Shown one piece after another: positions 10,403 through 33,269 of a stretch of 33,269 nucleotides of DNA. A program made the position numbers and the translations under genes. Position 1 is the stretch's first letter; every line of letters starts with the position of its first letter. The stretch spans positions 1 through 33,269 of the IMG/VR virus record IMGVR_UViG_3300032305_002820; one strand, written 5' to 3'. Origin of the DNA: a virus. Taxonomy: Duplodnaviria; Caudoviricetes. Below the pieces are notes generated by a model. That model did not search any database. It was not told the origin of the DNA and worked only from the letters and a program-made list of their open reading frames with translations.

Positions 10403-10433
10403 TTATTCACGATATTAAATAATTTATTCGACT

Positions 10434-10971: not shown

Positions 10972-10987
10972 GAAGAATATAATTATT

Positions 10988-12600: not shown

Positions 12601-13090
12601 TAAGGCTTGATAGATAAAAATTCTAATTTTTCCAATACATCCTCAATGTGGCAAGCAAAACTATAAGGCTTATTTAATCTAGTAAGGCTTTGTAATTGAT
12701 TCATTCTTGAATGATCATACAATTTACCATCATATATGACAAAAAAAGCTATATTACCTTGCGTTCTGCGTTGGAAGCTCCTCAACAAACTTAATTGTTC
12801 TTTATATTGGCTATCTTGATTGCCACCTGATTCTTTGGTATATTTATGGCTTGCGTAGCATTGAATACCATTTGTGATCCATTTAAAATCTAAAGATTTA
12901 GCAATCGCCTTATCTTGTAAAGTCTTGCCATCCACAATATGCCCATCCGAAGTAATATACTCCGCATTATCTCCGCCCTTATTTAGTATTTCAAAATTAG
13001 TTATAGCTTCGAATTGTTTTAAATACTCTCCTCGGCATTTTTACGCCACATTTCTACTTCTATAGCATCGTAATTAGGTGGTTTTATCAT
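12600..13090 (-). pseudogene. Frameshifted putative Type II restriction endonuclease
   Basis: The ATG at 13090, 1 nt after the MTase stop, gives MIKPPNYDAIEVEMWRKNAEESI*. The -1 frame continues EYLKQFEAITNFEILNKGG...KSLDF...SHKYTKESGGNQDSQY...IYDG to 12600. Confidence 0.7.
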
Positions 13091-13091
13091 A

Positions 13092-14015: not shown

Positions 14016-14041
14016 TTGTTAAATCTCCAACAAAACCGTAA

Positions 14042-14548
14042 TTATATATCAATATTTTGATTTATTAAATAACCCTCAGAAAAATCGTAGTCAGAAATGT
14101 CTTTTAGCGTTGTTAGTGCCTTTATTTTATTAACATTACTCCTCCATGCGATAAAATTATTATCAACGATAGTCATCATGAAGTTGTGTAAACATTTTAA
14201 CTGAGAAAGCGTTATACTGACTGACCCGCCGTTGTAGTAATAGATAAAAATTGCATCTTCTTCAGTTATTGACCCTTCAGAAACTCTCAACTGTAATTTA
14301 TCTATTTGCTCACGCACTAAATCCCTGCCTTCTTTTGTTAAAGAAAGAAGATAATGTTGGTTGATTTTTAATGTTCTCGCTGTTGCTGAGTTGTGAAAGA
14401 TATTCAATTCTTTAACTTTAGCGGATATTGCTTTTTGTAGAATGTATTCTGACCCCTCTTTGCTATTAGATATCTCTACACAATCACTCGATTGATTAGG
14501 ATTTTCTGTTTCAAAAATATTGCCACTTAAAGTATTTTTAAAAATCAT
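14042..14548 (-). CDS. Tail fibre assembly/chaperone-like protein (DUF4376-like)
   Basis: Directly downstream of the tail fibre; ITLSQLK.L...IKALTTLKDI..YDF pattern. Confidence 0.65.
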   Translation of the reverse strand: MIFKNTLSGNIFETENPNQSSDCVEISNSKEGSEYILQKAISAKVKELNIFHNSATARTLKINQHYLLSLTKEGRDLVREQIDKLQLRVSEGSITEEDAIFIYYYNGGSVSITLSQLKCLHNFMMTIVDNNFIAWRSNVNKIKALTTLKDISDYDFSEGYLINQNIDI

Positions 14549-14560
14549 GGTTATTCAAAT

Positions 14561-15892: not shown

Positions 15893-15900
15893 CTTTTAAA

Positions 15901-18042
15901 TTATTGATTTTCTAAAGTAGATTGAGTAGCTAAGTTGGTTAAAATGTATTGTTTAACGTCAGTAATAACTCTTTTCTGTAGCGGTTCTTTTTGCCTTCTT
16001 AAAATGCTTTCTAATGCTTTAATTGAAGCTCCTCTGTTTACTAAAATCTTAGCCAATTCGTCAGCATTTTTCTTGTTTATGCCCGCAAATTTGTTACTAA
16101 GGGCGTTGTGAGTTGCTTCTATTAGAGTAAATGGATTTAGCTTGCTTTTAGCTACAGTTAAACTGCCTTTGATTGCTTCATTTAAAAACTCATCATCCCC
16201 GGTCAAGTTGTAATCAGTTCTTGAGCCACCCAAAACTTTTGCTTTAGTGTCTGCGGCCTTCATTTCAGAGATCATTTTAGTTTGGAATTCTTCAAACTTT
16301 AGGTCGTTGCCTATTACTGCCTTTAGCTGCTCTCTTTTAAAATCATTACCAAAGATACGTTTTGAAGAGTCTGCGCCATCGGGAGTTGAAAACACTGTTT
16401 TTTGCAAATCTTCTCTAGCTCCTATTCTATAAGAATCTCTTTCAGCTGGTGATAATAGTAACATCTGCCTTTTGATTTCTTCGGGCTTTAACTTAGAAAA
16501 CTGTAAACCTTTTTGTTGAGCATTTATTAGCTTACTAGAATCTTCAAAAATTGATAATGCTTGAGAGTAATCAGGACTAAGAGCCTTAAGTTTTTGAGTA
16601 AGTTCTACCCTTAGCCCGTCTGGAATAGTAGCAGCATATTTTGCGCCCGTTCTTTTAAGAGTTTCAGCTTTGTCATAAAGACTTTGCTTAACCATATCCA
16701 GTAATAACAAAGAATTATCAGGAGCTTCGTCTGGCGAGATTCTGAATTCTTTCCTAACTGACTTTAGCTCTGGCTGTATTTTTTCAAAAAGCTTTTCGTT
16801 ACCTTTAACTGATAGTTGAGGGCCACCAACTGGAACTGCGGATTGTCTCGCATTTTTCCATTCTTCCAAAATTTTTAATTCTTCACCAGATTTATTTAAT
16901 GATTTTTGATTTATTTTATCGCTTGAATAAGTGCTGCCAGAAATTGATTTTCTTTGCAGTAAATCATTAATTTTTGCCGCATATTCTTCATCAATTGCTT
17001 CTAAACTCTTACCCTTACCAAAGGCCTTTTCGTAAAGGGGAGCGGATAAATCTCGCCTTGATTTAATTAAGTCATCTAAGTTACCAAAATAGCTATTTAC
17101 CGAAGAAACATCTTTAGATAGATGGTTTATAATTCTTTTTGAAGCTCCTTCGCTTCTTTTTTCTAAAGCATCATGAACTATATCTCTAGCCGTTGAAATT
17201 TTACCAACTGCACGAGTTAACCCCTTTATTGAATCACCCGCTATATCAGGTAATAAAATTGGATTTTCTGGTAAATTATCGACATTTTTTAATTTATCGA
17301 GTAAGGCAACTGTCTCTTGTCTGGGTAATTTAGCGGCTATAATGTCAACTGGACTTTTTGCGGTAACTAATTTTTTACCTATGTTATAGCTACCACCAGC
17401 AACTTTTGCAACTGTGCCCAAGCCAGCACCGAACAAACTTCCAGTGATTGCTCCACCTAATGTTTCCTTTGCCCTATTTTCTAAGCCAACCTCTTCTTGT
17501 TGAGATAAACCTTGCGATACTGCCCCACCAACTCCACTACCAACAGCTAATCCAGCAATTTTTGAGCCAGTAGCAGCGGCAACTTTAGCACCCGTTCCAA
17601 CTCCCGTGGTTAAAAAAGGAAGTATTTCGCCCAACACAGTCCCTACTTTTTCAGAAGTTGGTAATTTATCTTGCTCTTCTTTTCTAACTTTTACTTGTTC
17701 AGCTAATCTATTGCCGAAGGTTTGCATCCCTATATTATCGCCAAAATATAGTTTTTCTATTAATCTTGCAGCACTCTCACCGACATCTGTAGCAGCCTGA
17801 ACTCCACCGATAACAGAATTGCCGAGGCCTTGCGGTATACCAGCGGCAAAGTTACCAGCCCTTTTTAAGTTTCTTGAACTAAAAGAATCTTGTGATATTT
17901 GATTTTGATTATTTTGAGCTAACTGTGGTTTTGCTTGTTGAATAACGCTTTGAACAAAAGAATTTTGTTGGTCGGGACTTAAGTTTTTAAAACCCTCATC
18001 AACTTCAATTTCACCAACTCCATCAATTTCTAAATTAGGCAT
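15901..18042 (-). CDS. Large internal virion / DNA ejection protein
   Basis: 713 aa with a Gly/Ala-rich hydrophobic segment (GTGAKVAAATG...GGAITGSLFGAGLG); third of three genes after the nozzle. Confidence 0.75.
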   Translation of the reverse strand: MPNLEIDGVGEIEVDEGFKNLSPDQQNSFVQSVIQQAKPQLAQNNQNQISQDSFSSRNLKRAGNFAAGIPQGLGNSVIGGVQAATDVGESAARLIEKLYFGDNIGMQTFGNRLAEQVKVRKEEQDKLPTSEKVGTVLGEILPFLTTGVGTGAKVAAATGSKIAGLAVGSGVGGAVSQGLSQQEEVGLENRAKETLGGAITGSLFGAGLGTVAKVAGGSYNIGKKLVTAKSPVDIIAAKLPRQETVALLDKLKNVDNLPENPILLPDIAGDSIKGLTRAVGKISTARDIVHDALEKRSEGASKRIINHLSKDVSSVNSYFGNLDDLIKSRRDLSAPLYEKAFGKGKSLEAIDEEYAAKINDLLQRKSISGSTYSSDKINQKSLNKSGEELKILEEWKNARQSAVPVGGPQLSVKGNEKLFEKIQPELKSVRKEFRISPDEAPDNSLLLLDMVKQSLYDKAETLKRTGAKYAATIPDGLRVELTQKLKALSPDYSQALSIFEDSSKLINAQQKGLQFSKLKPEEIKRQMLLLSPAERDSYRIGAREDLQKTVFSTPDGADSSKRIFGNDFKREQLKAVIGNDLKFEEFQTKMISEMKAADTKAKVLGGSRTDYNLTGDDEFLNEAIKGSLTVAKSKLNPFTLIEATHNALSNKFAGINKKNADELAKILVNRGASIKALESILRRQKEPLQKRVITDVKQYILTNLATQSTLENQ

Positions 18043-19202
18043 TATTTTAACCTCCAGCCAATATTTCCAACCTTTCCGCTTGCTTGTGATTGCGAATTTG
18101 TTGCTTTATCTGTATCTCCTAATTGTCTTTTTGTTGATTCAATGCTGGCTTTCTTTTGAGTAATAAATGATTTTAGAATGACTTCTTTTTCGGTCGGTGA
18201 TTTATTCGGGTCTCCAAGAGTTGCCCTTAAAGTGTCCCCTTCTTTTTGTGTGAAGGCTGCGCCGAATATATCTCTTAATAAAGGAAGGACTTGATTATCT
18301 ACCTTTGAAATGTATTCCGCGCGAGCATTGCCACCTTCAGACATCGGTAAGCCCGCCTCCCTCAGAGCAAAATCTCTTGCTTGACCCGTTTTTGTATAAG
18401 TCGCTTTTTTACTTAGTTCGCCTAGTTCTTTTACTGTGCGCTCTAATTCTGGAAGCTTAGATTCTTGAGAATTTAAGCTTGATCTAGCTTCACCTCTGCC
18501 TTTTCCAACTTCAGCGCCCTCAGATTCAGCCGCTTTTGATGCGCTTTTTGAATCAAGTAAGCCCGCCATAGGGGCAACATTTCCTGAAGCATCAAACTCT
18601 AAACCTTGCCTTGCTAAACCTTGGGCTTGTGATAAAGCTTGTGCATAAGTAAGATTCGGGTTTTCTCTTCTAAGATTGTTTACAATTGCCCCAGTTGCAC
18701 CGCCATACGAACTAGAGTCAGGAGCAAAAGAGCTTTCTTTCTTTATGGCTGATCTGTATGTTGAATCATCAATAATTCCTGATTGATAGTCAGCCGCAAT
18801 TTTGCCAATTGAGCTTTGTGGCTCTGGTGATTTTAGAGAAGCTTTTAAAGCTTCTAATGAATAAGATTGACGAGTTTCTGGCGACAATGTTGAAGCTATA
18901 TCAGCTAAGTGAGGAAATTGTTTTGCAAAAGCTTGTTGTGAAGCAAATTCTTGTTCATTTAAGTCTTTTTGCGCTTTGTATTGAGCATAAGCTCCAATTC
19001 CCGCTGTTGCTAGTTGAGCAGCTAAACCAATGCCTCTCGCAGCTCCTCCGCCAAAGTTTGACGAATCCATCGCCATTTGCGAAATACTCCTACCAGTTGC
19101 AAGTTGCTGCTGGCTATTTTGATTTGCAGAATATCCACCCAAACTTTGAGCAACCGAACTTCTATTTACCGCGGGTCTTTCAACATTGCTTCTGTTAACC
19201 AT
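18042..19202 (-). CDS. Internal virion / DNA ejection protein
   Basis: Q/A/S-rich helical 386-aa protein with GAAFTQKEG motif; podovirus core position. Confidence 0.72.
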   Translation of the reverse strand: MVNRSNVERPAVNRSSVAQSLGGYSANQNSQQQLATGRSISQMAMDSSNFGGGAARGIGLAAQLATAGIGAYAQYKAQKDLNEQEFASQQAFAKQFPHLADIASTLSPETRQSYSLEALKASLKSPEPQSSIGKIAADYQSGIIDDSTYRSAIKKESSFAPDSSSYGGATGAIVNNLRRENPNLTYAQALSQAQGLARQGLEFDASGNVAPMAGLLDSKSASKAAESEGAEVGKGRGEARSSLNSQESKLPELERTVKELGELSKKATYTKTGQARDFALREAGLPMSEGGNARAEYISKVDNQVLPLLRDIFGAAFTQKEGDTLRATLGDPNKSPTEKEVILKSFITQKKASIESTKRQLGDTDKATNSQSQASGKVGNIGWRLK

Positions 19203-20320
19203 TATTTGATCCTCCTAAACTCTACGTCAATCTGCGAATAATCTACGCTTAAATAGCCGTCTCTTCCTTTTATTATAGCGCTAGGGTTGCTTTCTAGTAA
19301 ATCTTGGGCCATAACGCCTTCGTAAGTTCCAACACCATTTTTCTTATCTTTATAATCAAATTCATAAATTGGGATTCCGCTTGGTGAAATAGAGATTTGC
19401 TTAATGTTTTCTTTTAAATCTCTGTCGGAAGCTGCGGCTATAATTCCAGGCGCAGCTTGCACTCCAGCAGCCCCCAAGCCACCAAGTGCGCTATAAATTG
19501 CGTTTTTATTTTGCTGCCTTAGCTGCAATCTGTTTTGTTCGTTTTGGAAAGCTCTATTGATAGAAGATTGTTCTGCTCCAAATAAATCGAGACCGTTAAA
19601 ATTAGATCCCTGATTTTGAGCAAAGCTTGAGCCAGCACCGACTTGCGAACGGCCAAGTAATGAAGCTATTTCGTTAAATCTTTGACCCCTAACTTGCTCG
19701 CTAGTTTGAATTGAGGCTTGGCTTAAATCGGTGTATTGACGAGCAATTGAATCATCTAAGCGATTCATGGCCTCATTATAGCCCTCTGAACCAGCGGGCA
19801 TTCCTTGGTCCGCTAGTTGTTGAGCTAACTCTCTTCTTTGTTGCTTAACGATTGGATCAATCTGTGCCTTACCGCGTGCGAAAGTAGCATCTTGAATAGC
19901 TTGACCATTATTTGAGAAATCGCCGTTTAGAGAGCCACTTAATTGAGCAGCTAAACCTTCTTGGCGTAGCCTTTCAGATTTAGTAAAATCACTTTCTTTT
20001 AGTGTAATTGTATTTGTGTAAGGGTCGTAAGATTGTCCGCCCTCGGGTGTCTCAATAGTTGGGTTATTGAGTAATAAATCTTTTTGTTGCTCTGGAGATA
20101 AAGTTGAAAATAAATTAGCAATCGTTAAATCTTGTTTTGTGTAAGGCGTTCCATCTTTTTTAGTTTTTTCACCGCCAAAACTAAGAATGCTTCCGTCATC
20201 ATTAAATATAGCCTCTTTTCCACCAAAAATATTTCTTCCACTTCCTGCAAAATTATTTCCTCCAATGCCAAAACTACCAACTTTCGCGACTGTGCTTGCG
20301 GCTTTTTTTAACCAACCCAT
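19202..20320 (-). CDS. DNA ejection/pilot protein with C-terminal Peptidase S74 (autocleaving chaperone) domain
   Basis: LADQGMPAGSEGYNEAM motif; C-terminal SDRDLKENI...IYEFDYK...GVMAQDL...GYLSVDYSQI. Confidence 0.8.
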   Translation of the reverse strand: MGWLKKAASTVAKVGSFGIGGNNFAGSGRNIFGGKEAIFNDDGSILSFGGEKTKKDGTPYTKQDLTIANLFSTLSPEQQKDLLLNNPTIETPEGGQSYDPYTNTITLKESDFTKSERLRQEGLAAQLSGSLNGDFSNNGQAIQDATFARGKAQIDPIVKQQRRELAQQLADQGMPAGSEGYNEAMNRLDDSIARQYTDLSQASIQTSEQVRGQRFNEIASLLGRSQVGAGSSFAQNQGSNFNGLDLFGAEQSSINRAFQNEQNRLQLRQQNKNAIYSALGGLGAAGVQAAPGIIAAASDRDLKENIKQISISPSGIPIYEFDYKDKKNGVGTYEGVMAQDLLESNPSAIIKGRDGYLSVDYSQIDVEFRRIK

Positions 20321-20328
20321 AATTTTAT

Positions 20329-21885
20329 TTATAAACTATTATTAACGCTTACGCTGTAATCTGTCCTGTACCAATTAACTTGCTGCCCGTTTAGATCGAC
20401 TTTTATCGTCATACTAACATCTACACCTTGCCCCGATGATATTATTAATTCGTTCCTAGTGATATTTTCTGGACTCCAAGAAGACATATCCCACATGCTG
20501 ACATCCCACAAAGAGCCGCTAGAAGCAGAGCTTGAATTTTGTGTAGCTAAAAAAGATTTGCCGTAATCAAAGTTTACTGTAGTATTGAAAACGACTAAGC
20601 CATCTGCTTTGACTGTGTTTCTAAAAGAATTTATTGTTTTTTCTTGAGGGCTGCCGAGGTTAGAATAAGCAGATTGTGCTTTGCAGGCTATATTAGAGCC
20701 GTTATCGCTTAAGCCATCGTCTGCTTTATAAACAGAACCATTACCACCAAAATATAAGTTATTATTGAATAACCCCCAAGTATTAGCGTTTATGCCTGTG
20801 AATTTGGTTGCTGCCCCCGTAATCGTATTGATTACGTATTGATGGTAAGTAAGGTTGTTAGCTACTGGCACATTAAAAAGAAGCCAGCCACCTTTTGAAT
20901 ACAACACAACTTCCCAGCCATAATTGCTTGAATAAGCATTAACTGCATTTAAAGCTGCGCCTGAAAGCTTACCTTTTTGAGTAACTGCTCCATCATTCTT
21001 AAATACTTCGCTAAAAAAGACAAAATCTTGATCAGTAATAATAACCACATCACCAGCGACTTTCTTAGCTCCTCTTATGGCAATAGGACGACCTATTTTG
21101 TAAGTTCCAAGTAATGACCAATTTGCAGGATCAGAACCTTGGTAGAGCAGGACATCACCCGAAGACATTAGAAAAATAGCATAATCATCTACACCATTTC
21201 CGCCGTCCAAATTCCAAGTCATCATTGAAATTAAATTGCCACCAAAAGGGGCGACGCGTGAAAGTTGAAATTTAGTGAATGTTCCACCTATGGCGTTTGT
21301 TGCTCCATACCACACATCTTGACTATTGGAAGACCAGACATAAACCCTGTTTTTATGGACATTTATACCGTTTAATTGGGCTGGAGTTAATCCGCTTCCT
21401 GATATTGTGCTGGTCGCTAATGTGTTCCCATCAAATGTTAGCGGAGTATCAGAGCCATTAACTAAGATCAGATAAGAATTAAAATTAACCCATTGCCATC
21501 TCGCATTAGTATAGCCGCTGCCTAAATTAATTACGCTTGATACGTTAGTAATATCGTTTATTTGGGTACCGTTGGCACAAATAAATTTCCTTGTAGTGCC
21601 CGCATTATACTCCATCAAAGTTTCAACGTAACCAGACAGGCCTGTTAAGTATTGAGTAAAACCTTTTCTTGTTGAAACATAACCTTGCGATGGAAACCAA
21701 TTTTCCATCAAAACGGCATCCGTCGCTTCCATCGAACTTTCCGCATCTCTAGTATTTAATCCACCAACAGGCGAGGGAATATTTGATCTTAACGCTGACC
21801 CACTTCTTTCTTGATTTAATCCTACATAATTTGGATTGAGGTTAATTTCGTTTAACCTAGAGCTTTTATTAATTACTAAAGGCAT
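20329..21885 (-). CDS. Tail nozzle / tubular protein B-like (beta-propeller)
   Basis: PSPVGGLNTRD...A..MENWFP...RKG start and WD..WD..W end; follows the adaptor gene. Confidence 0.82.
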   Translation of the reverse strand: MPLVINKSSRLNEINLNPNYVGLNQERSGSALRSNIPSPVGGLNTRDAESSMEATDAVLMENWFPSQGYVSTRKGFTQYLTGLSGYVETLMEYNAGTTRKFICANGTQINDITNVSSVINLGSGYTNARWQWVNFNSYLILVNGSDTPLTFDGNTLATSTISGSGLTPAQLNGINVHKNRVYVWSSNSQDVWYGATNAIGGTFTKFQLSRVAPFGGNLISMMTWNLDGGNGVDDYAIFLMSSGDVLLYQGSDPANWSLLGTYKIGRPIAIRGAKKVAGDVVIITDQDFVFFSEVFKNDGAVTQKGKLSGAALNAVNAYSSNYGWEVVLYSKGGWLLFNVPVANNLTYHQYVINTITGAATKFTGINANTWGLFNNNLYFGGNGSVYKADDGLSDNGSNIACKAQSAYSNLGSPQEKTINSFRNTVKADGLVVFNTTVNFDYGKSFLATQNSSSASSGSLWDVSMWDMSSWSPENITRNELIISSGQGVDVSMTIKVDLNGQQVNWYRTDYSVSVNNSL

Positions 21886-22581
21886 CTAAGGAGTTACTAA
21901 TTTTGGATAACCAACTCTCGCATCACTATCAGAATAATTATGGCGGATTGTTTTTCTTGCTCCGTTTATTCTAGCTCTTTCTGCAACCGCTAAGTTAGAA
22001 ATTCTTAGCTCTTCTGAGTAAGGGCGGCCGTTGTTTTTTAGCCATCTCCAAGTTGAATCTAGCCTTAAAATTGTTTCGTCTATTAAAGGAACATCACTAT
22101 CAGCGAGCCAACTAGTTTGTGCTGCGCCCAATGAGCTCTGAATGACTTTGCTTGTTATGTACTCGTAGACATAACTTTCTGGTGAAGTTGGAATTGGAAA
22201 AATTAAAGTTTGATTGCCTCTAATTCTAAAATATTCACAAGAAGCTCCGCCAGAAATAGAGGAATTTTTTAACAATCTCCACTCCTGCGGTGTCATAGCT
22301 CCTTCAAGAGCCGTCATTTTAGTTGAATTCCAGAACGTGTTATTGATAAATCTGTCGAAATCTTCTGGTAAATTATAGCCTTCTGTCGCACCAACAGAAG
22401 TAAAAAAATTTTCTTTCTGTAGTTCTTGCCAGTCAAAAGATCGGCAAAGCTCAATTGTTGATATTTTTACAACTTCTAAAACTTGCTTTGCCGAGTCTTC
22501 ATTATTCCCTATAATACTAGTAGGAATACTACTGCTCTTAGTTTCTTGTAAAATGCTCTGCGCTAATGTTAAAAGTGACAT
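21886..22581 (-). CDS. Head-tail adaptor / tubular protein A-like
   Basis: MSLLTLAQ...WQEL...YNLPEDFDRFINNTFWN...FRIRG pattern. Confidence 0.8.
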   Translation of the reverse strand: MSLLTLAQSILQETKSSSIPTSIIGNNEDSAKQVLEVVKISTIELCRSFDWQELQKENFFTSVGATEGYNLPEDFDRFINNTFWNSTKMTALEGAMTPQEWRLLKNSSISGGASCEYFRIRGNQTLIFPIPTSPESYVYEYITSKVIQSSLGAAQTSWLADSDVPLIDETILRLDSTWRWLKNNGRPYSEELRISNLAVAERARINGARKTIRHNYSDSDARVGYPKLVTP

Positions 22582-23030
22582 TACTTAGAGCTTTTTTTTG
22601 AGTTTTCCTTGCTAGCTACTGTTTCCGCTGCTACTTCAGCAGTTTTTGCTTTCTTAGCTTCAGATTCAGCAAGCTTTTTCTTAAGCTCTTCAATTTCGGC
22701 ATAAGGATCAGCTGAAGCTGCGCTATTCTTTACTTCTAAATATTTTTCGTAAGCCCTTGAGAATAATTCAGTTTCTGGAACTAGGCGAATATCTTCGCCA
22801 GCTAAAATTCTTCTGTCTCCTGCCTTTCTTTCCACAATTGTTGTAGTGTCCGCTGGATTCTCAATTCTTATGTAAAGTCTAGGTTCTTCTTTTGAAGAAA
22901 TCACTATCCCTTTATCATCAACAAATTTAGAAACTTCATAAATTTTATCGAAAAATGCTACTTTTAAACCGCCGTCTCTCGTTAATACGAGTTGATTGGG
23001 TTTTACATCTAAAACTAGTCTTTCTTTCAT
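22581..23030 (-). CDS. Hypothetical protein (head module)
   Basis: 149-aa ORF between the decoration and adaptor genes, translationally coupled. Confidence 0.7.
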   Translation of the reverse strand: MKERLVLDVKPNQLVLTRDGGLKVAFFDKIYEVSKFVDDKGIVISSKEEPRLYIRIENPADTTTIVERKAGDRRILAGEDIRLVPETELFSRAYEKYLEVKNSAASADPYAEIEELKKKLAESEAKKAKTAEVAAETVASKENSKKSSK

Positions 23031-23052
23031 TTGTTTTTTATTAATTTATTGA

Positions 23053-23084
23053 AATTAAAGGGGGTTTTTATACCCCCTTTAATT
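23053..23084 (-). terminator. Intrinsic terminator after capsid/decoration genes
   Basis: Perfect stem AATTAAAGGGGGT-TTTTAT-ACCCCCTTTAATT. Confidence 0.75.
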
Positions 23085-23089
23085 ATTTA

Positions 23090-23572
23090 TTAGCCGTTTC
23101 CGTTTAAAGCAGGGAAAGCGATTTGGACAACTGCAAAGCCAGCTGAAGGGGTACCATCAGCAGTTTTATAGTTTGCGCCATCGATTGCATTAGTTGCAGA
23201 AACTGCATCGTCAATAGTGCCTGCGGTAGCAGTAACGTAAGGTCTTGCGCCAGCTACTGCAGTAGCTGATTTAACAACCGCAGAACCTCTAATTTGATAC
23301 CAGCCATAACTTGAAGCTACGTTTGCAGACATTGCGATCGCTACTGGACCACGAGATGCAGAAACGGCTCTTGTAGTTGTCCCAGCATATTGATCAAAAA
23401 TTACTGCATCGCCTATCGCAGTAGAGGCAACGCCCGCTAAATAAACAAATTCACCTTCGCCGTAAATTGGATCATTCGCGTTAATAACAGTTCCAACAGG
23501 AACTGTTTTAGTTGTAGAAGTTTCTGTAATCGCTTGGTTGATTATTCTTTCTTCTAAAATTGTGTAAGGCAT
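23090..23572 (-). CDS. Capsid decoration/cement protein
   Basis: Ala/Thr-rich 160 aa with DP.YG.GEFVYL.GV and YGWYQI.G motifs; directly after the major capsid gene. Confidence 0.75.
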   Translation of the reverse strand: MPYTILEERIINQAITETSTTKTVPVGTVINANDPIYGEGEFVYLAGVASTAIGDAVIFDQYAGTTTRAVSASRGPVAIAMSANVASSYGWYQIRGSAVVKSATAVAGARPYVTATAGTIDDAVSATNAIDGANYKTADGTPSAGFAVVQIAFPALNGNG

Positions 23573-23595
23573 GTTTTAATAAAATTAAGGTTAGA

Positions 23596-24555
23596 TTAAG
23601 GGTGCATTACGCCGTTAACACGAGCATTATCGATCGTCATGTTACCAGTTAAAACGATAGGTGTAACATAGCAGTTTTGATTGACTGGGCGCGAAGTTTC
23701 ACCAACTTCAAACAAATCCTTTCCTAAGTATTTTAAGAAAATGTGGTTTGTGTTCAAGAAGTAAGCGTGCGAAGCTGGGCACTCAGGATCGTAAAACACA
23801 TCTGCGTTTTTATAGCGATAGCTTGAATATCCTAATGCTCCAATTGCTGGGTCGGTGATTCGCTGAACTGTTTGAAGTGAAGTTTCGAAAAAACCAAAAT
23901 AAATGCTGTCGGCAGCAATTAAGTCAGGTAATTCACCAGCCTGCGCTTGGCAACGAGTCCAAAGGGCATTAAATGCAGCTTGCATAGTGCTTGCTGAAGC
24001 AGTCGCTGACTCAACAGAAAAATCATAGATTTTATTTCTCCAAACTGAAAAATTTGCTCTATTAATATTTCCTACTGTTCCGCTTGTCGGGTCATCAGCA
24101 ACTAAAAGTTGAAGACCGCCGATTTCTTTTCCACCAGTACCAGTGCCATCAGCATAAATTGAAGAGCCTAATTGGTTTGCTAAAGAATCTTTTAGAACTT
24201 TCTTTTTAGCTTCAGCTAGATTAATAAAGCCTTCCTTGCCAGCGTTCTGTTTCATCTCCAAATCACTCATTGTCATAGTTCCTGTAAGGATTTTTTGATT
24301 GAATGTTGCGGTAGTTAAAACGTCTTGCGGGGTAGTGTTAAAAGTATCATATTCACCTTGGTACTGAACAGTGCCGTTAGTTGCATATGAAATTTTTTCT
24401 TGAAAAGTCGCACCACCAGAAACTTTAACAATATTTCCTTTCGATTGCAGTCTGTTAAGTAAAGGGTGATTATTAACTATGCTGCTAGTAATCTCTGCTT
24501 TATAATTATCGAGAGTGGTGGTGAGTAGATTTGAGTAACTATTGGGATTTGGCAT
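23596..24555 (-). CDS. Major capsid protein
   Basis: 319 aa between scaffold and decoration genes; TTTL...NHPLL.RL.SKG, DGTG.GGKEIGGLQLLV, GTVGNINR..W.N motifs. Confidence 0.9.
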   Translation of the reverse strand: MPNPNSYSNLLTTTLDNYKAEITSSIVNNHPLLNRLQSKGNIVKVSGGATFQEKISYATNGTVQYQGEYDTFNTTPQDVLTTATFNQKILTGTMTMSDLEMKQNAGKEGFINLAEAKKKVLKDSLANQLGSSIYADGTGTGGKEIGGLQLLVADDPTSGTVGNINRANFSVWRNKIYDFSVESATASASTMQAAFNALWTRCQAQAGELPDLIAADSIYFGFFETSLQTVQRITDPAIGALGYSSYRYKNADVFYDPECPASHAYFLNTNHIFLKYLGKDLFEVGETSRPVNQNCYVTPIVLTGNMTIDNARVNGVMHP

Positions 24556-24594
24556 TTTTTATATTTATTAAGGTTATTTAATAAATATTAAGCT

Positions 24595-25596
24595 TTAAAT
24601 GTTGCCAACAGACCATCTGTCATATATCTCAGAAAGAGCGTCTTTTGATGAAGCGGGTTTGATTGCAAAGGAAGAAGAGCGACTTGATAGCTTTTTAAGT
24701 TTTTTAGCTTTTTCAATTTCTAATTCTTTTCTTTCCTTAGCTTTTCTTAAAATCTGCTCATCTCTTTTACTGCCTAGGTCGTCATCAAGAATAACGGCTT
24801 TTTCATAAGCTTTTTTAAGCCTAGAAATGCGTTCTTGTGAGTTTTTAGGCAAGCCTAGCTTTACCTTCTCCAGCTCAAGAATATCTTTTATTGAAGACTG
24901 TAAAACGTCGAAATGAGGATATTTAAGATCGCCACTTTCATCTATATCGTTAGCAAAATTTTCTACTTCTTGCTCGATAACAGAAAACTCGTCATTGATT
25001 TTTTGATTTTTTAGCTGCTGTAACTCTTGCTTAATACTTTCGAGTTGCTTGTCTCTCTCTATCTCTTCAGGGGTTCTATAATTATAATCATAGCTATCCT
25101 CAACAGGTTCTGTGAGACTTTTAAGGTCAATTTTGACGACCTTTGCAATGTGTTTAATAGCTTCGGCAGGGTTTGTGTCTAAAAATTTTAGTAAACCGCT
25201 AACGTTGCTGTATTCTTTCTTGAGATTGCCAAGCTCTAAACTTACTCTATCTTCTCTTGCACGCGCCACTTTGCCTGCCTCAAGAATTTTAGTTTGTAGC
25301 TCTTTATCTTTCACTGATTTGACGAGCTCCTTGAACTCCTTGGGTTGCCCACCGAGCTTCCTTTCTAGTTCTTTTATCTCCTCAATTTCAGAATCTTGTT
25401 TATCATCTTCTAGGGTCTCTTTCGACTCCTCCTCGCCAACTAAAGTCTCATCTTCAATTTGTTCGCTTTCTGGCTCTTCTTCTTTGTTTGCTACATCTAG
25501 CTTTGTTTCTTCTTCTGGATTTGTAGCTACATCTTGATTAAAAAATTGATCTAGCTCCTTAGAAAAAGAGTCGTTTATTTTGTTTTCTTCTGTCAT
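24595..25596 (-). CDS. Capsid scaffolding protein
   Basis: Very acidic N-terminus, coiled-coil and ...KYPHFD...AYEKAV; immediately upstream of the capsid gene. Confidence 0.8.
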   Translation of the reverse strand: MTEENKINDSFSKELDQFFNQDVATNPEEETKLDVANKEEEPESEQIEDETLVGEEESKETLEDDKQDSEIEEIKELERKLGGQPKEFKELVKSVKDKELQTKILEAGKVARAREDRVSLELGNLKKEYSNVSGLLKFLDTNPAEAIKHIAKVVKIDLKSLTEPVEDSYDYNYRTPEEIERDKQLESIKQELQQLKNQKINDEFSVIEQEVENFANDIDESGDLKYPHFDVLQSSIKDILELEKVKLGLPKNSQERISRLKKAYEKAVILDDDLGSKRDEQILRKAKERKELEIEKAKKLKKLSSRSSSFAIKPASSKDALSEIYDRWSVGNI

Positions 25597-25599
25597 GTT

Positions 25600-25818
25600 T
25601 TAATTATAGTCTTTGATGTGATAACCCTTGGATTTTATGCCGTCTAAGTAGGATTTTTTAGTAGTGTGAATCTTATTATCAGCGTGACTAAAAATCCCGC
25701 CATGCTTGCTAATATAGCCGTCAACTGTTAAATCCTCTTTTCCTTGGCGAAAAGGTCTTATTGACTCTTTTTCAATCCAAAGAGCCTTGCCGTTTTCGTA
25801 AACTAGCTTTTTAATCAT
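25600..25818 (-). CDS. Small hypothetical protein
   Basis: 72 aa between portal and scaffold, translationally coupled. Confidence 0.65.
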   Translation of the reverse strand: MIKKLVYENGKALWIEKESIRPFRQGKEDLTVDGYISKHGGIFSHADNKIHTTKKSYLDGIKSKGYHIKDYN

Positions 25819-27977
25819 TAAACTTGTGCGGGCTGGTTGGAGTTTCTTATTTGATCGTTCAAGATTTCTGTTCTAGCTTTCACGATCATGTCAAGTCTGC
25901 TTGCTTCTCTGTCTGCTTGTCTATTAACGTCTTCAAACTCTAAGTTGTCTTGATGCTTCTCTATATCAAATTTAACTTGAGCTTTCTTTATATCTAACTC
26001 TTGCTGTGCTTGATCAGCTTTGATTTGAAGCTCTTGTTGTTTTAGTTGTAATTCTTGTTGCTTTAACTGTAGCTCAGCTTGTGCAAGCATCTCTTCAGCT
26101 GAAGGTTGCTTTTGCTCTTCTTTCTCTTCTTTTCTTTGTAAAGATTCCTCGACATTCCTGCCGACTTTGAAAGGCTTACTTATAAACATTAAGAATTGTT
26201 GGAATGCTTCGGGCGTTATGATTTGAGATTGAAGCAGCGGGAAAAATGCACTAGAGAAATTGCTAATTGCAGTTATATATTCGATTCTACTTTGCTTTTC
26301 CTGCTGCTGATCAATTCTTATTGTTGAGTCGGTCTCAACATCAACTAAAAAAGTGCGCATTTTGTCGCTCTTAATCAAAAAATCTAATTCTTGAAGCTGC
26401 TGCGGGGTTATTGCATAACCTTTAAGTAATTCCAGCGGCTGCTTTAAAGTTTCTTTAAACCCTTTTTCTGCTTGCTGCTTAAGCATATCAATTTTTTCAT
26501 TGATTTGCGGGTCATTTGGGTCAATTTGCTTTTGAGCTTCCATCATCAAGACCTTTTGCCTGTCTCTTGTCTGCGCTGCTATTGTCTCAATATCTATGAC
26601 TTTTAAGCTAGTCATTTCTGCTAGCTCTTGAGTTGTGTAGTTTTCAACTGCTAGCTCTATTAGTAATCGAATTAAATCTCGACTCCAGAACTCTATTTCT
26701 TTTTGGATAGGCTGTATTCTTGATATAGCAAAATTACCCTTCAATTGCTGCGCTGTTGCAGTTTCTGAAGCTGTTGAAACGCCCCTCACAATATCAGAAA
26801 TACCCGTGATGTCTCTTATTGCGTTGATGATCTCAATTTTATGCTGCTGTAATTCTCTTATAGTTAAAATAATCTCGTTCAAAGGCTTAAATAAGACTAA
26901 ATCACTAACTTTTTGAATTCCTGTTGTGCTGCGTAAAGGAGAGAAAGAGCCATCATCGCCATTAAACAGATTTTCAATATCAGACTGTTCGGCGGTAGAA
27001 GAATAAACACCTGTTGCTTTGCATTGCTCTATTAGAGACTTAATTCTTGCATCTATCTTGTTTAACTCTTCCGCTTGGCTCTTATATAGTCTATAGAGCG
27101 GAATAGGGGTTAATGAAGTTGGGTCAGATTTGCTGCCTAGAGGTGCTGGAATCGGGAAGAATCCTTTTAAATTGTAAGGGTTTTCTTGTTCGTCTAAAAG
27201 AAGGCCGTTTCCGCCGATAGTTAAAAATAAAACTTTCTCGCTCTCTCTATCCCAAACTTCCCAAATCTCAGCAACTTTAAAATTATCGTCATCGCTAGTT
27301 ATTGAGCTGCTTGAGTAATCGAGTCGCTTTTTATTCAAATCAACCGCACTTCCTTTTTTACCAAAATCTTCAACTAACTCATCCCTTGTTTTAAAGTGTC
27401 TGAACGCTATCCAACGAACTTTAGACCACTCTTTTTCTTGCGAAATCCTGAAATTATTCCAGTCAACATATTCTAAACGACATTTTTTTTCAGAATTATC
27501 GATTTCTTGGATAATCTCTCCGCCGTCTTCAATTTCGATTACTTCCTCGGGATCATACACAACTCTCGCAACACCACGTCCACCAATGAGAAAATCGTCT
27601 CTACATTTGCCAATAACGTCTTCAGCTTCTGAATCGCTAAGATATAAATTGACCACTCGCTCCATCATTTCAGAAGCTATTTTTGCAACCTTGTTTTCGT
27701 CTGTAAATCTTTGTGTTATGTTAGCTTTTGGAAGCTTGGAGAATATAAGAGGGCGTAATGTCTGTGTATTTGACCAAAAAACATTGTAACGCTTAGATTC
27801 TATGCCGCTTTTTGTATTATATTCGTCTTTATAAATTTGAAAATACTTTTCTGCTTCGTCTCTCCAAGGTTTTTCGTTTTGATCTGAGCTTTCTATTTCT
27901 TTAGTCCAGAACTCAACAATTGCGCTTTCTTTTTTTGATGAAGAATTTTTGCTGTTTGTTTTAGTTTCTATATCCAC
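25818..27977 (-). CDS. Portal protein (long, with C-terminal Q-rich barrel as in P22-type portals)
   Basis: NVFWSN.QTL.P and ITGISDIVRG...ETATAQQLK motifs, a long C-terminal QQELQLK coiled coil, and position after terL. Confidence 0.9.
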   Translation of the reverse strand: MDIETKTNSKNSSSKKESAIVEFWTKEIESSDQNEKPWRDEAEKYFQIYKDEYNTKSGIESKRYNVFWSNTQTLRPLIFSKLPKANITQRFTDENKVAKIASEMMERVVNLYLSDSEAEDVIGKCRDDFLIGGRGVARVVYDPEEVIEIEDGGEIIQEIDNSEKKCRLEYVDWNNFRISQEKEWSKVRWIAFRHFKTRDELVEDFGKKGSAVDLNKKRLDYSSSSITSDDDNFKVAEIWEVWDRESEKVLFLTIGGNGLLLDEQENPYNLKGFFPIPAPLGSKSDPTSLTPIPLYRLYKSQAEELNKIDARIKSLIEQCKATGVYSSTAEQSDIENLFNGDDGSFSPLRSTTGIQKVSDLVLFKPLNEIILTIRELQQHKIEIINAIRDITGISDIVRGVSTASETATAQQLKGNFAISRIQPIQKEIEFWSRDLIRLLIELAVENYTTQELAEMTSLKVIDIETIAAQTRDRQKVLMMEAQKQIDPNDPQINEKIDMLKQQAEKGFKETLKQPLELLKGYAITPQQLQELDFLIKSDKMRTFLVDVETDSTIRIDQQQEKQSRIEYITAISNFSSAFFPLLQSQIITPEAFQQFLMFISKPFKVGRNVEESLQRKEEKEEQKQPSAEEMLAQAELQLKQQELQLKQQELQIKADQAQQELDIKKAQVKFDIEKHQDNLEFEDVNRQADREASRLDMIVKARTEILNDQIRNSNQPAQV

Positions 27978-27980
27978 TTT

Positions 27981-29444
27981 TTATTCGTAGTTTTGAGCTT
28001 CTAAACTATACTTCTTCAATAAATCCTTTTTAAAATTGCTATGGTTAAAGTCTTTATACCACTGTTCACTCGATTCTAGCTGCGTTTTAGGAAGATCAAC
28101 CACCACAGGTCTACTCATACACAAATAGCGCAAAGTATCAACTGCGTGATCTTCTAGATCGCTGTTTAAATCCTCGGGCTTAGAAACATCGTATTGCATC
28201 ACTGGCAACGTTCTTAATAAATTCTTACAATCGCTAACTATGTAGAGCAGGGGCTTATCATCCACCCCGTTTAATCTAGCTCTAATTTGTTGCCATCCCG
28301 AAACTCTTTTATTGTCCGCTGGTCTCCAATAAATATCTTCTTTAGCCATCTGATCCGCTATAGATTCCCCAACAGAGACATCAAAAATAGCAGGATCGGC
28401 CACCATATCGTTCATTTTTTCACCTAACTGCATTGTTTTAGTATTTTTAGCAATTTCAGGTGGGTTAATTTTTATTCCTTCGTTTGCTTTACCTGTCGTG
28501 CCGTAATATTCACGATAAATAATGATTGAGCCTCTTGGAAATACTCTTCTAATACCTCCGACGTTTACAAGTGAGCCGTCAGAAACAGCCCCCCATAATA
28601 CGCAGAACGGCCTTGAATATCCCCAGTCAAAAGCTCTAATTCTAAACCACTCATTAGGTAGCAAGAAAGGCTCAACAACGTGAATATCTTTATCGAATTT
28701 ATCAAAATAAGCTCCTTCTATAGCGTCCCAGTCGCCATTTAACATCGCTTTAGCTAAAGCTCCGCCTAAACCAATTAACTTGTTGGCGTAAAATGGATCG
28801 TTTGCCATCATTGTCGGGTTATCATCTAACTTGGCGGGTATAAATTGCCTAAGCATTCCACCTTCTTCGGGTAACATCTGGCGGATTTCCATTGATTTAC
28901 AATTATCAATGAACATTTCTTTAACAAATTGATGACCAATTCCAGTCGGATTTGACCCCGCTATAATAAGCGGTAACTTTTTTTTATATTTTTCTGGAAC
29001 TTGTAAAGAACCAAGGCGACAGCGTCCACGCAAGAATTTATAAATCTTTTCTGAGAAGTGTGTTAGCTCATCAATTAGCAGAACGTTTATTTCTGCGCCC
29101 TGGTATTTTATGACGTCTTTCTCATGCTGACAGTGAGCTAAATAAATTTTAGCCCCATTCCAGAAAGTTATTTCGCTTTCTGAAATTCTAACATGTTTAG
29201 ATTTAATAAAAAGAGATAGTAAAGCAGCAAAGCCACTCGCTCCCTCAATATGATTCTTCGCTAAATCTGCGAAGATACGTCGAAATAAGTAAATTTGTAT
29301 GTTTGGAATTTCTAGAGCTAAAACAATTGCAATTACTCGCATTGTGTGACTCTTGCCACCTCCAGCTGCTCCGCCGTAAAGAATCTCAGTAGCTTCACTT
29401 AAGAAGCATGCTGATTGCTTCGGGTGCAGCTCTAAATTAATCAC
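27981..29444 (-). CDS. terL: Terminase large subunit
   Basis: YGGAAGGGKS (Walker A), LLIDELTHF (Walker B), GSNP.GIGH, AFDWG and EDHAVDTLRY motifs. Confidence 0.96.
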   Translation of the reverse strand: MINLELHPKQSACFLSEATEILYGGAAGGGKSHTMRVIAIVLALEIPNIQIYLFRRIFADLAKNHIEGASGFAALLSLFIKSKHVRISESEITFWNGAKIYLAHCQHEKDVIKYQGAEINVLLIDELTHFSEKIYKFLRGRCRLGSLQVPEKYKKKLPLIIAGSNPTGIGHQFVKEMFIDNCKSMEIRQMLPEEGGMLRQFIPAKLDDNPTMMANDPFYANKLIGLGGALAKAMLNGDWDAIEGAYFDKFDKDIHVVEPFLLPNEWFRIRAFDWGYSRPFCVLWGAVSDGSLVNVGGIRRVFPRGSIIIYREYYGTTGKANEGIKINPPEIAKNTKTMQLGEKMNDMVADPAIFDVSVGESIADQMAKEDIYWRPADNKRVSGWQQIRARLNGVDDKPLLYIVSDCKNLLRTLPVMQYDVSKPEDLNSDLEDHAVDTLRYLCMSRPVVVDLPKTQLESSEQWYKDFNHSNFKKDLLKKYSLEAQNYE

Positions 29445-29884
29445 CTATTTAAAATAAGATTGACTTGCGGCACAAGAGGAGCTTCCGAATCGCCTCTAAT
29501 AGTTGTTGAATCTCCGTAACGTTTCGGCTTAAGCTTTGAAGCTATCCATTTTCTAGCATCTATTCTAAGCCTAGCTTGATTTACTGCGCCTGTATCTATT
29601 TTTCCAAATTGATCAAGTGGCATTACTTCATCAGCGATCTGTAATATCTCTTCAGCGTATAAATCTGCGGCGGCTTCTTTAGCTACATAATAGCTATCAG
29701 AAAAGCTTTTCTTATTTCTAATCCAGCTAAAAATCGTTCTACTAGATGGGAACTTGGGATTATTTTTGACAACATCAGCAATAGAAATTCCTGTAGCTAT
29801 CAAATCACAGATTTGATTGGCTACTTCTTCAGAATACTTTGAGCTATATCTTGTTTTTCCCTTTGTTTTTAGTTTTTTATTCAT
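29441..29884 (-). CDS. terS: Terminase small subunit (Sf6-like)
   Basis: YSEEVANQICDLIATG...PSSRTIFSW...ARLRIDARKWIASKLKPKRYGD. Confidence 0.92.
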   Translation of the reverse strand: MNKKLKTKGKTRYSSKYSEEVANQICDLIATGISIADVVKNNPKFPSSRTIFSWIRNKKSFSDSYYVAKEAAADLYAEEILQIADEVMPLDQFGKIDTGAVNQARLRIDARKWIASKLKPKRYGDSTTIRGDSEAPLVPQVNLILNR

Positions 29885-29896: not shown

Positions 29897-29930
29897 AAAA
29901 AAGCCGCCTCCCTTACGAGAAAGCGGCTTT
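29897..29930 (-). terminator. Intrinsic terminator in the late leader (tR'-like)
   Basis: Minus strand AAAGCCGCTTTCTCGTAAGGGAGGCGGCTTTTTT, between the late promoter and terS. Confidence 0.8.
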
Positions 29931-29970
29931 CAAACTTATGCTATTATAATTTTTTTAACGCAAGAATTGC

Positions 29971-30011
29971 ATTATGGAAAAAACCATAAAAAACGAGTTC
30001 CCGATTGTCAA
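29971..30011 (-). promoter_or_regulatory. Late promoter (pR'-like) with sigma70-dependent pause element
   Basis: TTGACA (30011-30006)-N17-TATGGT (29988-29983), with a second -10-like hexamer CATAAT at predicted +1..+6 (29976-29971). Confidence 0.7.
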
Positions 30012-30547
30012 GCGATTTCTTTCTTGTAATAAATAGCTAGTTGAACAAGGGCAGTGATTATTTCGTCTTTAACTGTTGCGTGACGCTTTCTTAGCACCTT
30101 CTCTATTTCATTAATATTTTTTTCAGCACATAGAAACATATCTAAGATGTAAGATTTTTCTTCTAAGTTTTGTTTTGCTTTGTAGTAGCGCAAATAAGCA
30201 TCAATTTGTTTTTGGCTTGGTTCTTTGCTTGAATTTCTTGAGGAGAGGAACGAAGAGCCATCATAAGTTTGTTTGGCCATGTTATCTTTAATGCTGTAAA
30301 GATAATCTCTTGAATATTGAAAGCCTGCCGCAAAAAGCTTGCTGCAAATGCTATTATTTTGATATAAAGACCACAGCGGGCTTTGTATAGCGTATGCAAT
30401 TAGATTATTCTTCATAATATAACCTCTCACTAGCTTACCTTGCTTTTTGAGCTGTTTAATCATGTCAAAATTGATGTTCGAGCCTATTTTACAAGCTGAA
30501 GAGTCAGAAATCGGGTGATTTATTTTTTCTTTAAAAGCTAGTTGCAT
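30008..30547 (-). CDS. Late gene regulator, putative Q-like antiterminator (DUF6456-like)
   Basis: Directly upstream of the late promoter and terS; AAG..Y.RDY motif and a C-terminal HTH-like segment (INEIEKVLRKRHATVKDEIITALVQLAIYY). Confidence 0.65.
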   Translation of the reverse strand: MQLAFKEKINHPISDSSACKIGSNINFDMIKQLKKQGKLVRGYIMKNNLIAYAIQSPLWSLYQNNSICSKLFAAGFQYSRDYLYSIKDNMAKQTYDGSSFLSSRNSSKEPSQKQIDAYLRYYKAKQNLEEKSYILDMFLCAEKNINEIEKVLRKRHATVKDEIITALVQLAIYYKKEIA

Positions 30548-30568
30548 ATTTTTATATTTTTATCCTTG

Positions 30569-30616
30569 ACACAAGATGTAGTGATTTTTTTTATAAAAAG
30601 CTACTACATATTGTTT
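30569..30616. promoter_or_regulatory. Tandem NrdR-box-like operators overlapping divergent promoters
   Basis: ACACAAGATGTAGTGA (30569-30584, 13/16) and CTACTACATATTGTTT (30601-30616, 12/16) versus consensus acaCwAtATaTwGtgt, with a 16-bp gap. Minus-strand CTTGAC (30636-30631)-N17-CAATAT (30613-30608) overlaps box 2; plus-strand TTGACA (30566-30571) overlaps box 1. Confidence 0.72.
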
Positions 30617-30638
30617 TATCATTAAAAAAAGTCAAGAA

Positions 30639-31055
30639 ATGGGAATAGAAAAGAGCCAGCTTTTAGAAAAGTTATTTTATGCAAGTTGCCGCTGTGGTAA
30701 CCTTTATTTGCCTCACCCTGAAAGTTACGCTAAATGCAATGAGTGCAACGAGAAAGAGGACAAGAAGCTTTTAGAAAACTTTCAGGATCAAAATTTCTTC
30801 GTCTTTAGGAATAGGAGGCAATACTCTCTTAATGAAGACAAAGTTAAGGAGATCAGGGAATATTTTTGTGAAAACTATGGCATAAAATTTAAGCAAAGAC
30901 ATCAAGCTAGTAAATTCATAAGAAAAGACTTAGGCATTGAAATAGGTAATAAATTAATAGAATCTATCACTCACGTTGTGGCTTTGAGAAAAGTAGGTAT
31001 GAATTACAAGTATAGACCGTTTAGAAATGATCCAAGGGGATCAAAAAAGGCTTGA
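30639..31055 (+). CDS. Hypothetical protein with N-terminal Zn-ribbon (CxC-x13-CxxC) and basic C-terminal domain
   Basis: CRCGNLYLPHPESYAKCNEC; divergent from the Q-like gene. Confidence 0.65.
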   Translation: MGIEKSQLLEKLFYASCRCGNLYLPHPESYAKCNECNEKEDKKLLENFQDQNFFVFRNRRQYSLNEDKVKEIREYFCENYGIKFKQRHQASKFIRKDLGIEIGNKLIESITHVVALRKVGMNYKYRPFRNDPRGSKKA

Positions 31056-31680: not shown

Positions 31681-31962
31681 CTATTCTTTGTTAGTTTTCA
31701 TTAAATCAATCGCGCTATTAATTGAGCTATTAATCTTATCTAATCTTTCTTTTAAATCTTTGTTTTCAATTCTACAGACTACATTCTCACGCACTGCGTG
31801 CGTGATTTCTTTTTTTTTAAACCAAGTTGAAACCGTTCCTGAACTTACTCCATAAATTTTTGCAACCTTCGCATGTTTCACCTTCTTTTCCTTTAAAAAA
31901 AGAACAAATTCTTCAAATTGTTCTTTAGTTAAAAATTGATTTTCTGCTTTTTTGCGTGCCAT
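31681..31962 (-). CDS. Cro/XRE-type HTH transcriptional regulator
   Basis: KVKHAKVAKIYGVSSGTVSTWF helix-turn-helix and a C-terminal coiled coil; no S24 autopeptidase domain. Confidence 0.78.
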   Translation of the reverse strand: MARKKAENQFLTKEQFEEFVLFLKEKKVKHAKVAKIYGVSSGTVSTWFKKKEITHAVRENVVCRIENKDLKERLDKINSSINSAIDLMKTNKE

Positions 31963-32857: not shown

Positions 32858-33168
32858 AACAAAAACAACAATCGAGTCAAATTACTTTTTTTTTTGAAAA
32901 AAAAGACAATCGAGAAAAAGAAGCTATTTCAAGCGTTCTGAACTATCTAAGTTCGTTAATTAAGTCCGCAAAAAAGAATAAACTCGAAATTTTTAACGAT
33001 AAAAATTGGTCAATTTTTGAAAAAAAATTAAACGATTTAAGTATTCATAATCAAAATAGTATACTTCAACGCATCTTCAAAATAGACTTAAAACTTTTAA
33101 AAAAAGGAAATTCAAAGCTTAATAAGTTAGCTTACAAATCCCTTGAAACCCACTTCAAACTTCTTTAA
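32851..33168 (+). CDS. Basic hypothetical protein coupled to the rep gene across the circular junction
   Basis: ATG at 32851 (the track starts at TTG 32845); the stop is followed after 1 nt by the ATG at 33170 (= position 24). Confidence 0.6.
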   Translation: MSKQKQQSSQITFFFEKKDNREKEAISSVLNYLSSLIKSAKKNKLEIFNDKNWSIFEKKLNDLSIHNQNSILQRIFKIDLKLLKKGNSKLNKLAYKSLETHFKLL

Positions 33169-33269
33169 TATGGCGCACTTTAGAATTTTACCCCCGAGTT
33201 TTTGGACACAAAACTCAATCAACAGCATGAAATCAGAGAACAAGCTAGTTTTAAGCTGCTTGCTAACTT
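33147..33269. repeat. Terminal direct repeat (right copy); circular assembly overlap
   Basis: Identical to 1-123. Confidence 0.97.

Follow-up and report, generated by a model that had tools for sequence, protein, structure and literature searches.

Why should a phage that encodes no ribonucleotide reductase (RNR) carry, in front of the gene for a likely late regulator, what look like the paired boxes bound by NrdR, the dNTP sensor of bacteria? The original prediction for this locus was that NrdR of the host keeps the late regulator off in the plasmid state and lets go when dNTPs run low. We have considered it in the window (the whole 33,269-nucleotide stretch of DNA analysed here), in relatives of the phage and across IMG/VR.

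Genome and gene content

The record is a small uncultured freshwater podophage, complete and circular, with direct terminal repeats; the circle measures 33,142 bp and has a G+C content of 35%. On the plus strand are genes for RecT, YqaJ, ParA plus a ParG-like partner and proteins resembling replication initiators; the minus strand bears a podovirus late operon which extends from terS at 29884 as far as the lysis genes.

33143..33269, plus strand: 127-bp repeat of bases 1-127, the assembly overlap of a circular genome
4989..5952, plus strand: ParA and ParG/omega-like pair, plasmid-type partition
9397..29884, minus strand: late operon with terS, terL, portal, probable scaffold, major capsid, tail and ejection proteins and lysis genes
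30639..31055, plus strand: Cys-rich, Zn-finger-like protein of 138 aa, reading away from the boxes; homologue in relative G004 at E = 4.5e-9
31681..31962, minus strand: 93-aa HTH protein, a candidate phage regulator without an S24 domain

Several phage-plasmid features are thus seen together, namely a partition ATPase, replication-initiator-like genes, a circular genome and the absence of an integrase. The record contains neither a tyrosine integrase nor an S24 peptidase, the latter in agreement with the earlier statement that the phage has no RecA-cleavable repressor of CI type. It was also right that the phage has neither an nrd gene nor NrdR: a scan of 43 ORFs against PHROGs and Pfam gave no nrd gene, and no NrdR zinc ribbon in the whole record, the Zn-finger-like protein included. 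That protein gives no alignment with Escherichia coli NrdR (E = 0.59); a search with it matched itself only, and its Atlas matches are all below 0.9.

Some further features of the genome deserve mention. An N6 methyltransferase is encoded at 2891-4705 of the window and, within the late region, an Eco57I-like methylase next to a weak Tsp45I-like match at 12600-13958. The long intergenic region ahead of the replication genes has a TTGACT (near 32207) and, 3' of it, a strong inverted repeat (32270-32315), possibly a terminator or an operator. Short direct repeats (31215-31285) are found in a 65-aa secreted-looking ORF (31110-31307), and a variant from run X3 is without 24 bases there.

Searches of GTDB genomes by capsid or terminase gave no prophage relative. 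A plasmid search connected RecT (44-47%) with plasmids of Ca. Megaira and the SSB of relative G008 (50.6%) with a Ca. Bandiella plasmid. These are weak hints of a Rickettsiales-like alphaproteobacterial host and insufficient to name it; Anaplasma has nrdR (PMC13410764), which does not settle the matter for the host of the present phage.

The box pair

The intergenic region between the late regulator gene and the Zn-finger-like gene holds the following features.

30569..30584: NrdR-type box 1, ACACAAGATGTAGTGA; overlaps the rightward TTGACA and lies at about +17 to +32 of the predicted leftward transcript
30601..30616: NrdR-type box 2, CTACTACATATTGTTT; extends over the -10 and start point predicted for the leftward promoter
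30608..30636, minus strand: predicted leftward promoter for 30008-30547, CTTGAC (30636-30631)-N17-CAATAT (30613-30608), a weak match to consensus
30566..30571, plus strand: TTGACA, a -35-like hexamer facing the Zn-finger-like gene, without a good -10 at 16-18 bp

Both 16-mers are where the original prediction had placed them, with a spacer of 16 bp and a period of 32 bp, and both retain C4, A6, A8, T9, T11 and G13, the six highly conserved positions of NrdR boxes (PMC13584703). The A+T content between C4 and G13 is 75% and 88% in the two boxes, the published minimum being 63% (PMC13584703). The published regular expression for box pairs (PMC12051234, methods) is satisfied on both strands, a pattern which alone yields around 2.4 pairs per shuffle.

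A search for single boxes with up to three mismatches gave three matches against a shuffle mean of 1.24, which is not significant (three were reached by 18 of 100 shuffles). The pair is another matter. Scored with a position weight matrix (PWM) that is biased upward, being built from 156 viral boxes retrieved with a pattern modelled on the present site, the boxes reach 17.3 and 16.0 bits, with the next best single site in the genome at 8.9, and the score of the weaker box of the pair was reached by none of 300 shuffles (best 3.0). No other strong pair occurs in the genome. Scoring against background had been proposed with a RegPrecise matrix; with our viral-derived one the pair stands far above it, and given the bias we weight the published NrdR rules above PWM scores. 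On E. coli the same matrix scored box 1 at 16.6 and, at 6.0, a site that is apparently the non-binding box 0 of PMC13584703 and is therefore unusable as a benchmark. A looser rule, chosen after the sites were seen, requires only C4, A6, T11 and G13, at least five of eight A+T and a spacer of 14-18 bp; this four-base rule yields two further pairs in the window. One of the weaker pairs, at 31678-31727 with an 18-bp spacer, lies at the start of ORF 31476-31676 and is at about chance level.

The boxes were also said to overlap promoters in both directions. The hexamers are indeed present, the -35 elements flanking the pair, but neither promoter attained the threshold of the promoter scan, and as sequence features we regard them as plausible only. 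The boxes contain 12-bp arms that pair as a strong inverted repeat (z -5.5 for the DNA fold). Neither a LexA-type nor a CtrA motif is present in this promoter. By the published rules, the sequence supports a correctly spaced NrdR-type operator here.

The gene under the boxes and its late cassette

The gene behind the leftward promoter, and the elements which follow it, are these.

30008..30547, minus strand: 179-aa DUF6456-like protein with a C-terminal sigma-4-type HTH, a likely Q/GafZ-type late antiterminator
29971..30011, minus strand: pR'-like late promoter, made up of a TTGACA that overlaps the stop codon, N17 and TATGGT, with a -10-like CATAAT where +1 to +6 are predicted
29899..29931, minus strand: intrinsic terminator of 14 pairs with a T-run, placed after the late promoter and ahead of terS

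Cluster representatives include 27 homologues of the 179-aa protein, itself not counted. Its match to Pfam DUF6456 (PF20057; E = 0.007, 16.9 bits) is under the 26.3 cut-off, so we call it DUF6456-like only; eight of 25 aligned homologues match the family, weakly (best 1.5e-5). A BFVD search with the structure model (pLDDT 89.8) placed a DUF6456 phage protein at rank 2 (E = 3.9e-5, TM 0.55, rmsd 8.1), while Foldseek of the model against the PDB gave no match at E = 0.001. In a wide structure search, sigma-4 domains (VIA sigma-4, Z 9.2) outscored antiterminators over fewer residues; the longest alignments were to antiterminators, with Q21 at Z 7.2 (104 residues, rmsd 5.5) and AlpA at Z 5.8 (102 residues, rmsd 6.2). 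The likeness of the modelled fold to Q21 and AlpA is suggestive only.

Stronger evidence of a late-regulator role than the fold match is the DNA cassette behind the gene. On its 3' side come, in order, a promoter, a pause-like hexamer, a terminator and then terS. This order of promoter, -10-like element and terminator is the layout of lambda pR': as in lambdoid Q/pR'/tR' control, the regulator gene leads straight on to a promoter, a -10-like element (+1 to +6) and a terminator, with terminase next. Such a cassette lies behind all three DUF6456-like genes examined (those of the window, L176 and L167). Together with the sigma-4 fold, this lends support to the Q-like role proposed at the outset, and the product of 30008-30547 is likely a late antiterminator.

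Conservation of the boxes at this position

DNA around close homologues of 30008-30547 was found neither in viral contigs nor in metagenome contigs or annotated phages, G003 alone being recovered. Conservation therefore rests on two distant homologues and the variants from run X3. Both distant homologues with DNA (G003, 29% identical, and L167) lack the boxes upstream, so that the conservation looked for by the original prediction fails at this distance. Two X3 variants, around 93% identical, span the boxes. In box 1, positions 15 and 16 are changed in both and position 12 in one; in box 2, position 5 is changed in the variant without the position-12 change. None of the listed changes falls on a conserved base, and the spacer is of unchanged length, changes less than 30 bases from contig ends being unlisted. 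In a mutational study, binding was unaffected when position 5 alone was changed, and affected when 5 and 12 were changed in both boxes (PMC13584703). Four of the five changed sites in 30580-30637 fall inside the boxes, which as a whole are thus not more conserved than the spacer. Runs X2, X4, X5, X6, X8 and X9 gave no useful coverage of the boxes. At the antiterminator promoter, then, conservation judged from these sequences is limited.

Box pairs on the scaffold and capsid promoter of relatives

The relatives draw attention to a second late control point, in front of the scaffold gene.

24595..25596, minus strand: probable scaffold gene, with no TTGAC promoter in front of it in the window

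A TTGAC is found upstream of the scaffold gene in 32 of 36 relatives. The window and G003, both with a DUF6456-like gene, lack this internal promoter; an antiterminator homologue is present in one of 14 family records, and G008 is without one. G008 is a complete 34.5-kb relative (identity 49% for ParA, 68% for terL and 70% for capsid) and its one strong pair comes directly after a TTGACT, just ahead of the scaffold-capsid-tail genes. By the four-base rule, with its choice after the event, a pair is present in seven of the 36 scaffold-upstream regions (five when only the 23 distinct ones are counted), where shuffles give 0.0012 pairs per region; the other 29 have none. The spacer is 16 or 17 bp in all seven. 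A strict AT-centred pattern matched two of 14 and none of 36 family records, many of which are fragments. The proposed link of NrdR to late genes is strengthened by this recurrence of an NrdR-type pair on the capsid promoter.

Six of the seven pairs, from close relatives, have a box 2 with the rare centre TA; AA, TT and CG centres are tolerated in the relevant section of PMC13584703, where TA is not among the centres tested. In three similar loci (L137, L140 and L160) G13 of box 1 is broken. Particularly informative are G004 and G005, which have a rule-compliant pair at the capsid promoter while ParA, integrase and S24 are all absent. This shows that the gate need not be tied to the plasmid state and favours a timer of the lytic cycle. 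The Zn-finger homologues of G004 and G008 do not adjoin the pairs. A ParA search for further relatives found none.

A further caveat on these pairs is that between the box-like halves of the scaffold promoter a covarying hairpin of 6-8 bp is predicted, with double changes in five of ten predicted pairs.

Hairpin loci upstream of scaffold: L136:8890-8961; L137, L138, L139, L140, L143, L157 and L169

The hairpin promoters have a -10-like hexamer 19 bp from TTGACA. Elsewhere in the relatives, two large terminases have long in-frame insertions (L012:4741-7371, 876 aa; L015:5617-7920, 767 aa; compared with 487), which by eye look intein-like.

Paired boxes across IMG/VR

The paired pattern occurs in an estimated 620 viral stretches of IMG/VR. 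Where periods of 30-33 bp were allowed, 93 of 111 non-identical sampled sites have a period of 31 or 32 bp. With all 31 periods from 16 to 46 bp allowed, 60 of 78 de-duplicated sites fall at 30-33 (46 sites) or 40-43 (14 sites), and none at 22-27 or 35-37. These peaks match the two helical spacing classes of NrdR, which binds two classes of spacer according to a helical-phase rule (PMC12051234). Unrelated phages, with G+C contents of 23-63%, share the motif and its phasing.

Adjacent ORFs, assigned mechanically, were scanned for 92 of 150 in a first set and for 71 of 120, plus four others, in a second. No RNR was found among the scanned ORFs of either set. Their matches include three antirepressors, three excisionases, two small terminases, a large terminase and portals, most being unnamed. 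In 40 records (37 box-bearing and three of the present family), an RNR of the classes searched for, I and II, occurs in two and a lone NrdR-type zinc ribbon in two.

A proposed mechanism and its rivals

NrdR carrying dATP plus ATP binds box pairs 15-16 bp apart tightly, and ATP-loaded NrdR does so poorly (PMC12051234); heterologous boxes are bound by both E. coli and Streptomyces NrdR (PMC13584703). From this nucleotide-dependent binding, taken from the literature, and from the operator, gene order and promoter-terminator cassette read in the sequence, we infer the remaining steps. Early on, NrdR would cover the -10 and start region of the leftward promoter. Phage replication would then cause dATP to drop, or NrdR tetramers to be outnumbered, and NrdR would be released. 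At the pR'-like promoter RNA polymerase would be loaded with the 179-aa protein, and would then read past the terminator (29931-29899) and into the late operon of 20 kb. Where relatives lack the 179-aa protein, the same gate would sit directly on the scaffold/capsid promoter. Host operons preceded by NrdR sites go up during lytic growth of the pneumococcal phage SpSL1 (PMC6755750), which is consistent with phage replication releasing NrdR. We think it probable that, through an NrdR-type operator over the predicted antiterminator promoter, host NrdR keeps the genes for virion and lysis silent until replication either brings dATP down or leaves the repressor outnumbered. Its main role is likely to be timing within the lytic cycle, and silencing in the plasmid state may be a second use.

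The original prediction gave the weight to that second use: the operator would mainly silence the plasmid prophage, with host dNTP stress replacing SOS as the induction signal. The ParA and ParG-like genes, the circular genome, the lack of an integrase and S24 repressor and the absence from this promoter of a LexA-type motif all fit, as does the location of the other strong pair in G008, which also has ParA. Against it stand the pairs at the capsid promoter of G004 and G005 despite their lack of ParA and integrase, and the lack of boxes in G003, which has both ParA and an antiterminator homologue; moreover, the gated genes are late ones rather than the replication genes needed first on induction. 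The NrdR-type identity of the operator and its link to late genes can be kept from the original proposal, and silencing as the chief function now seems unlikely. A phage-encoded regulator, the Zn-finger or the HTH protein, might instead be what binds the inverted repeat, its likeness to NrdR boxes being incidental. Autoregulators typically have such a position, in a divergent promoter adjoining their own gene, the 12-bp arms make a strong inverted repeat, and two box-bearing viral records do encode their own NrdR-type zinc ribbon without an ATP cone. Yet the window has no such ribbon and its Zn-finger protein cannot be aligned to E. coli NrdR, the homologues in G004 and G008 lie away from the pairs, and unrelated phages of widely differing G+C share the motif and its helical phasing. 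We judge this explanation improbable, somewhat more so than plasmid silencing.

Two further readings would leave the late genes out of account. The pair could be a sponge, with genome copies titrating the repressor and raising host RNR output to the benefit of a phage without its own RNR, and with little effect on phage transcription; the rise of host NrdR operons in the lytic growth of another phage (PMC6755750) is in keeping with that. A sponge could lie anywhere, however, whereas the pairs of this family sit on late control points and overlap -35 or -10 elements, and we give the idea little credence. That the pair arose by chance, or is a relic, in intergenic DNA rich in A+T might be suspected from the insignificance of single boxes and the two other four-base-rule pairs in the window, but none of 300 shuffles approached the score of the pair and pairs recur at late promoters of relatives, making this hardly credible. 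The preferred reading remains that of a host NrdR gate on late gene expression.

Comparison with known systems

The site resembles the bacterial RNR operators, such as those of E. coli nrdAB, nrdHIEF and nrdDG and of S. coelicolor nrdAB and nrdRJ, in having two 16-bp boxes with the conserved positions and a 16-bp spacer (PMC13584703, PMC12051234), as well as in overlapping promoter elements, here predicted ones. Unlike in the RNR regulon, the target would be a phage late regulator, with no nrd gene among the 43 ORFs. According to bioRxiv 2025.03.28.645925, only RNR operons both carry box pairs and respond to loss of nrdR in E. coli and Pseudomonas aeruginosa.

As with LexA on antirepressor and lytic promoters, Spo0A on phi29 and the deferment of lysis by CtrA (PMC9437464), a host factor would be borrowed for lysis timing. 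The signal would differ: where those systems respond to DNA damage, sporulation or the cell cycle, this one would respond to the dATP/ATP state or the genome copy number. Neither PMC9437464 nor a 2026 review of SOS-independent induction (PMC13760530) mentions NrdR. Our literature search, the coverage of which leaves out most subscription papers, found no report of NrdR sites in phage genomes. Borrowing of host regulators is already known for LexA, Spo0A and CtrA (PMC9437464); NrdR would be a further borrowed factor.

The antiterminator likewise has partial parallels. The 179-aa protein differs from lambdoid Q in being DUF6456-like and not of the Q family by sequence, and in having its own promoter, predicted to be covered by an operator, rather than being read from an early operon. 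It also resembles GafZ of Caulobacter, an antiterminator related to the C-terminal part of GafA: in these gene transfer agents of alphaproteobacteria the C-terminal domain is annotated as DUF6456 and has a sigma-4-like C-terminus (bioRxiv 2023.11.12.565669; PMC9638019). The GafZ operon is shut off by the repressor RogA on its core promoter (same sources). The likeness comes from the DUF6456 annotation and fold rather than from direct sequence alignment, and the present case differs in that the phage is self-replicating, no GafY partner is seen and the repressor would be NrdR.

A possible portable checkpoint

Taken more broadly, the host dNTP sensor NrdR might serve as a portable replication checkpoint for phage late genes. 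Its operator would have moved between capsid and antiterminator promoters in one podophage family. Phased pairs away from RNR genes occur in unrelated viral contigs by the hundred, in some cases in front of genes for antirepressors, excisionases or packaging, and the whole would amount to a widespread SOS-independent lytic timer. To this general picture we lean only slightly. The window adds to it the antiterminator cassette and an operator that changes place between two late control points of a single family. If true, NrdR gains a class of direct targets outside RNR, and there is an answer to the question of how small phages without a late polymerase or cleavable repressor couple virion building to replication. 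The SOS-independent input to phage timing would then be dATP level or titration of the repressor.

Further paired boxes in unrelated phages

Phased pairs lie upstream of antirepressor Ant genes in three contigs (L039:558-1253, L072:806-1357 and L087:566-1300) and of an excisionase gene in a fourth (L083:1823-2140); on the strength of sequence these are candidates for NrdR-driven induction. The two stand-alone NrdR-type zinc ribbons without an ATP cone are encoded at L251:1990-2181 (plus strand) and L187:592-804 (minus strand) and have 63 and 70 aa, respectively. The gene in L251 lies between terL and a box pair ahead of the portal gene. Such a ribbon could be a nucleotide-blind mimic or antagonist of NrdR. 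Finally, pairs with a period of 38 bp, off the helical phase of NrdR, are found in L185, L205, L218, L183 and L242, with a RelA/SpoT-like gene 3' of the pair in L185.
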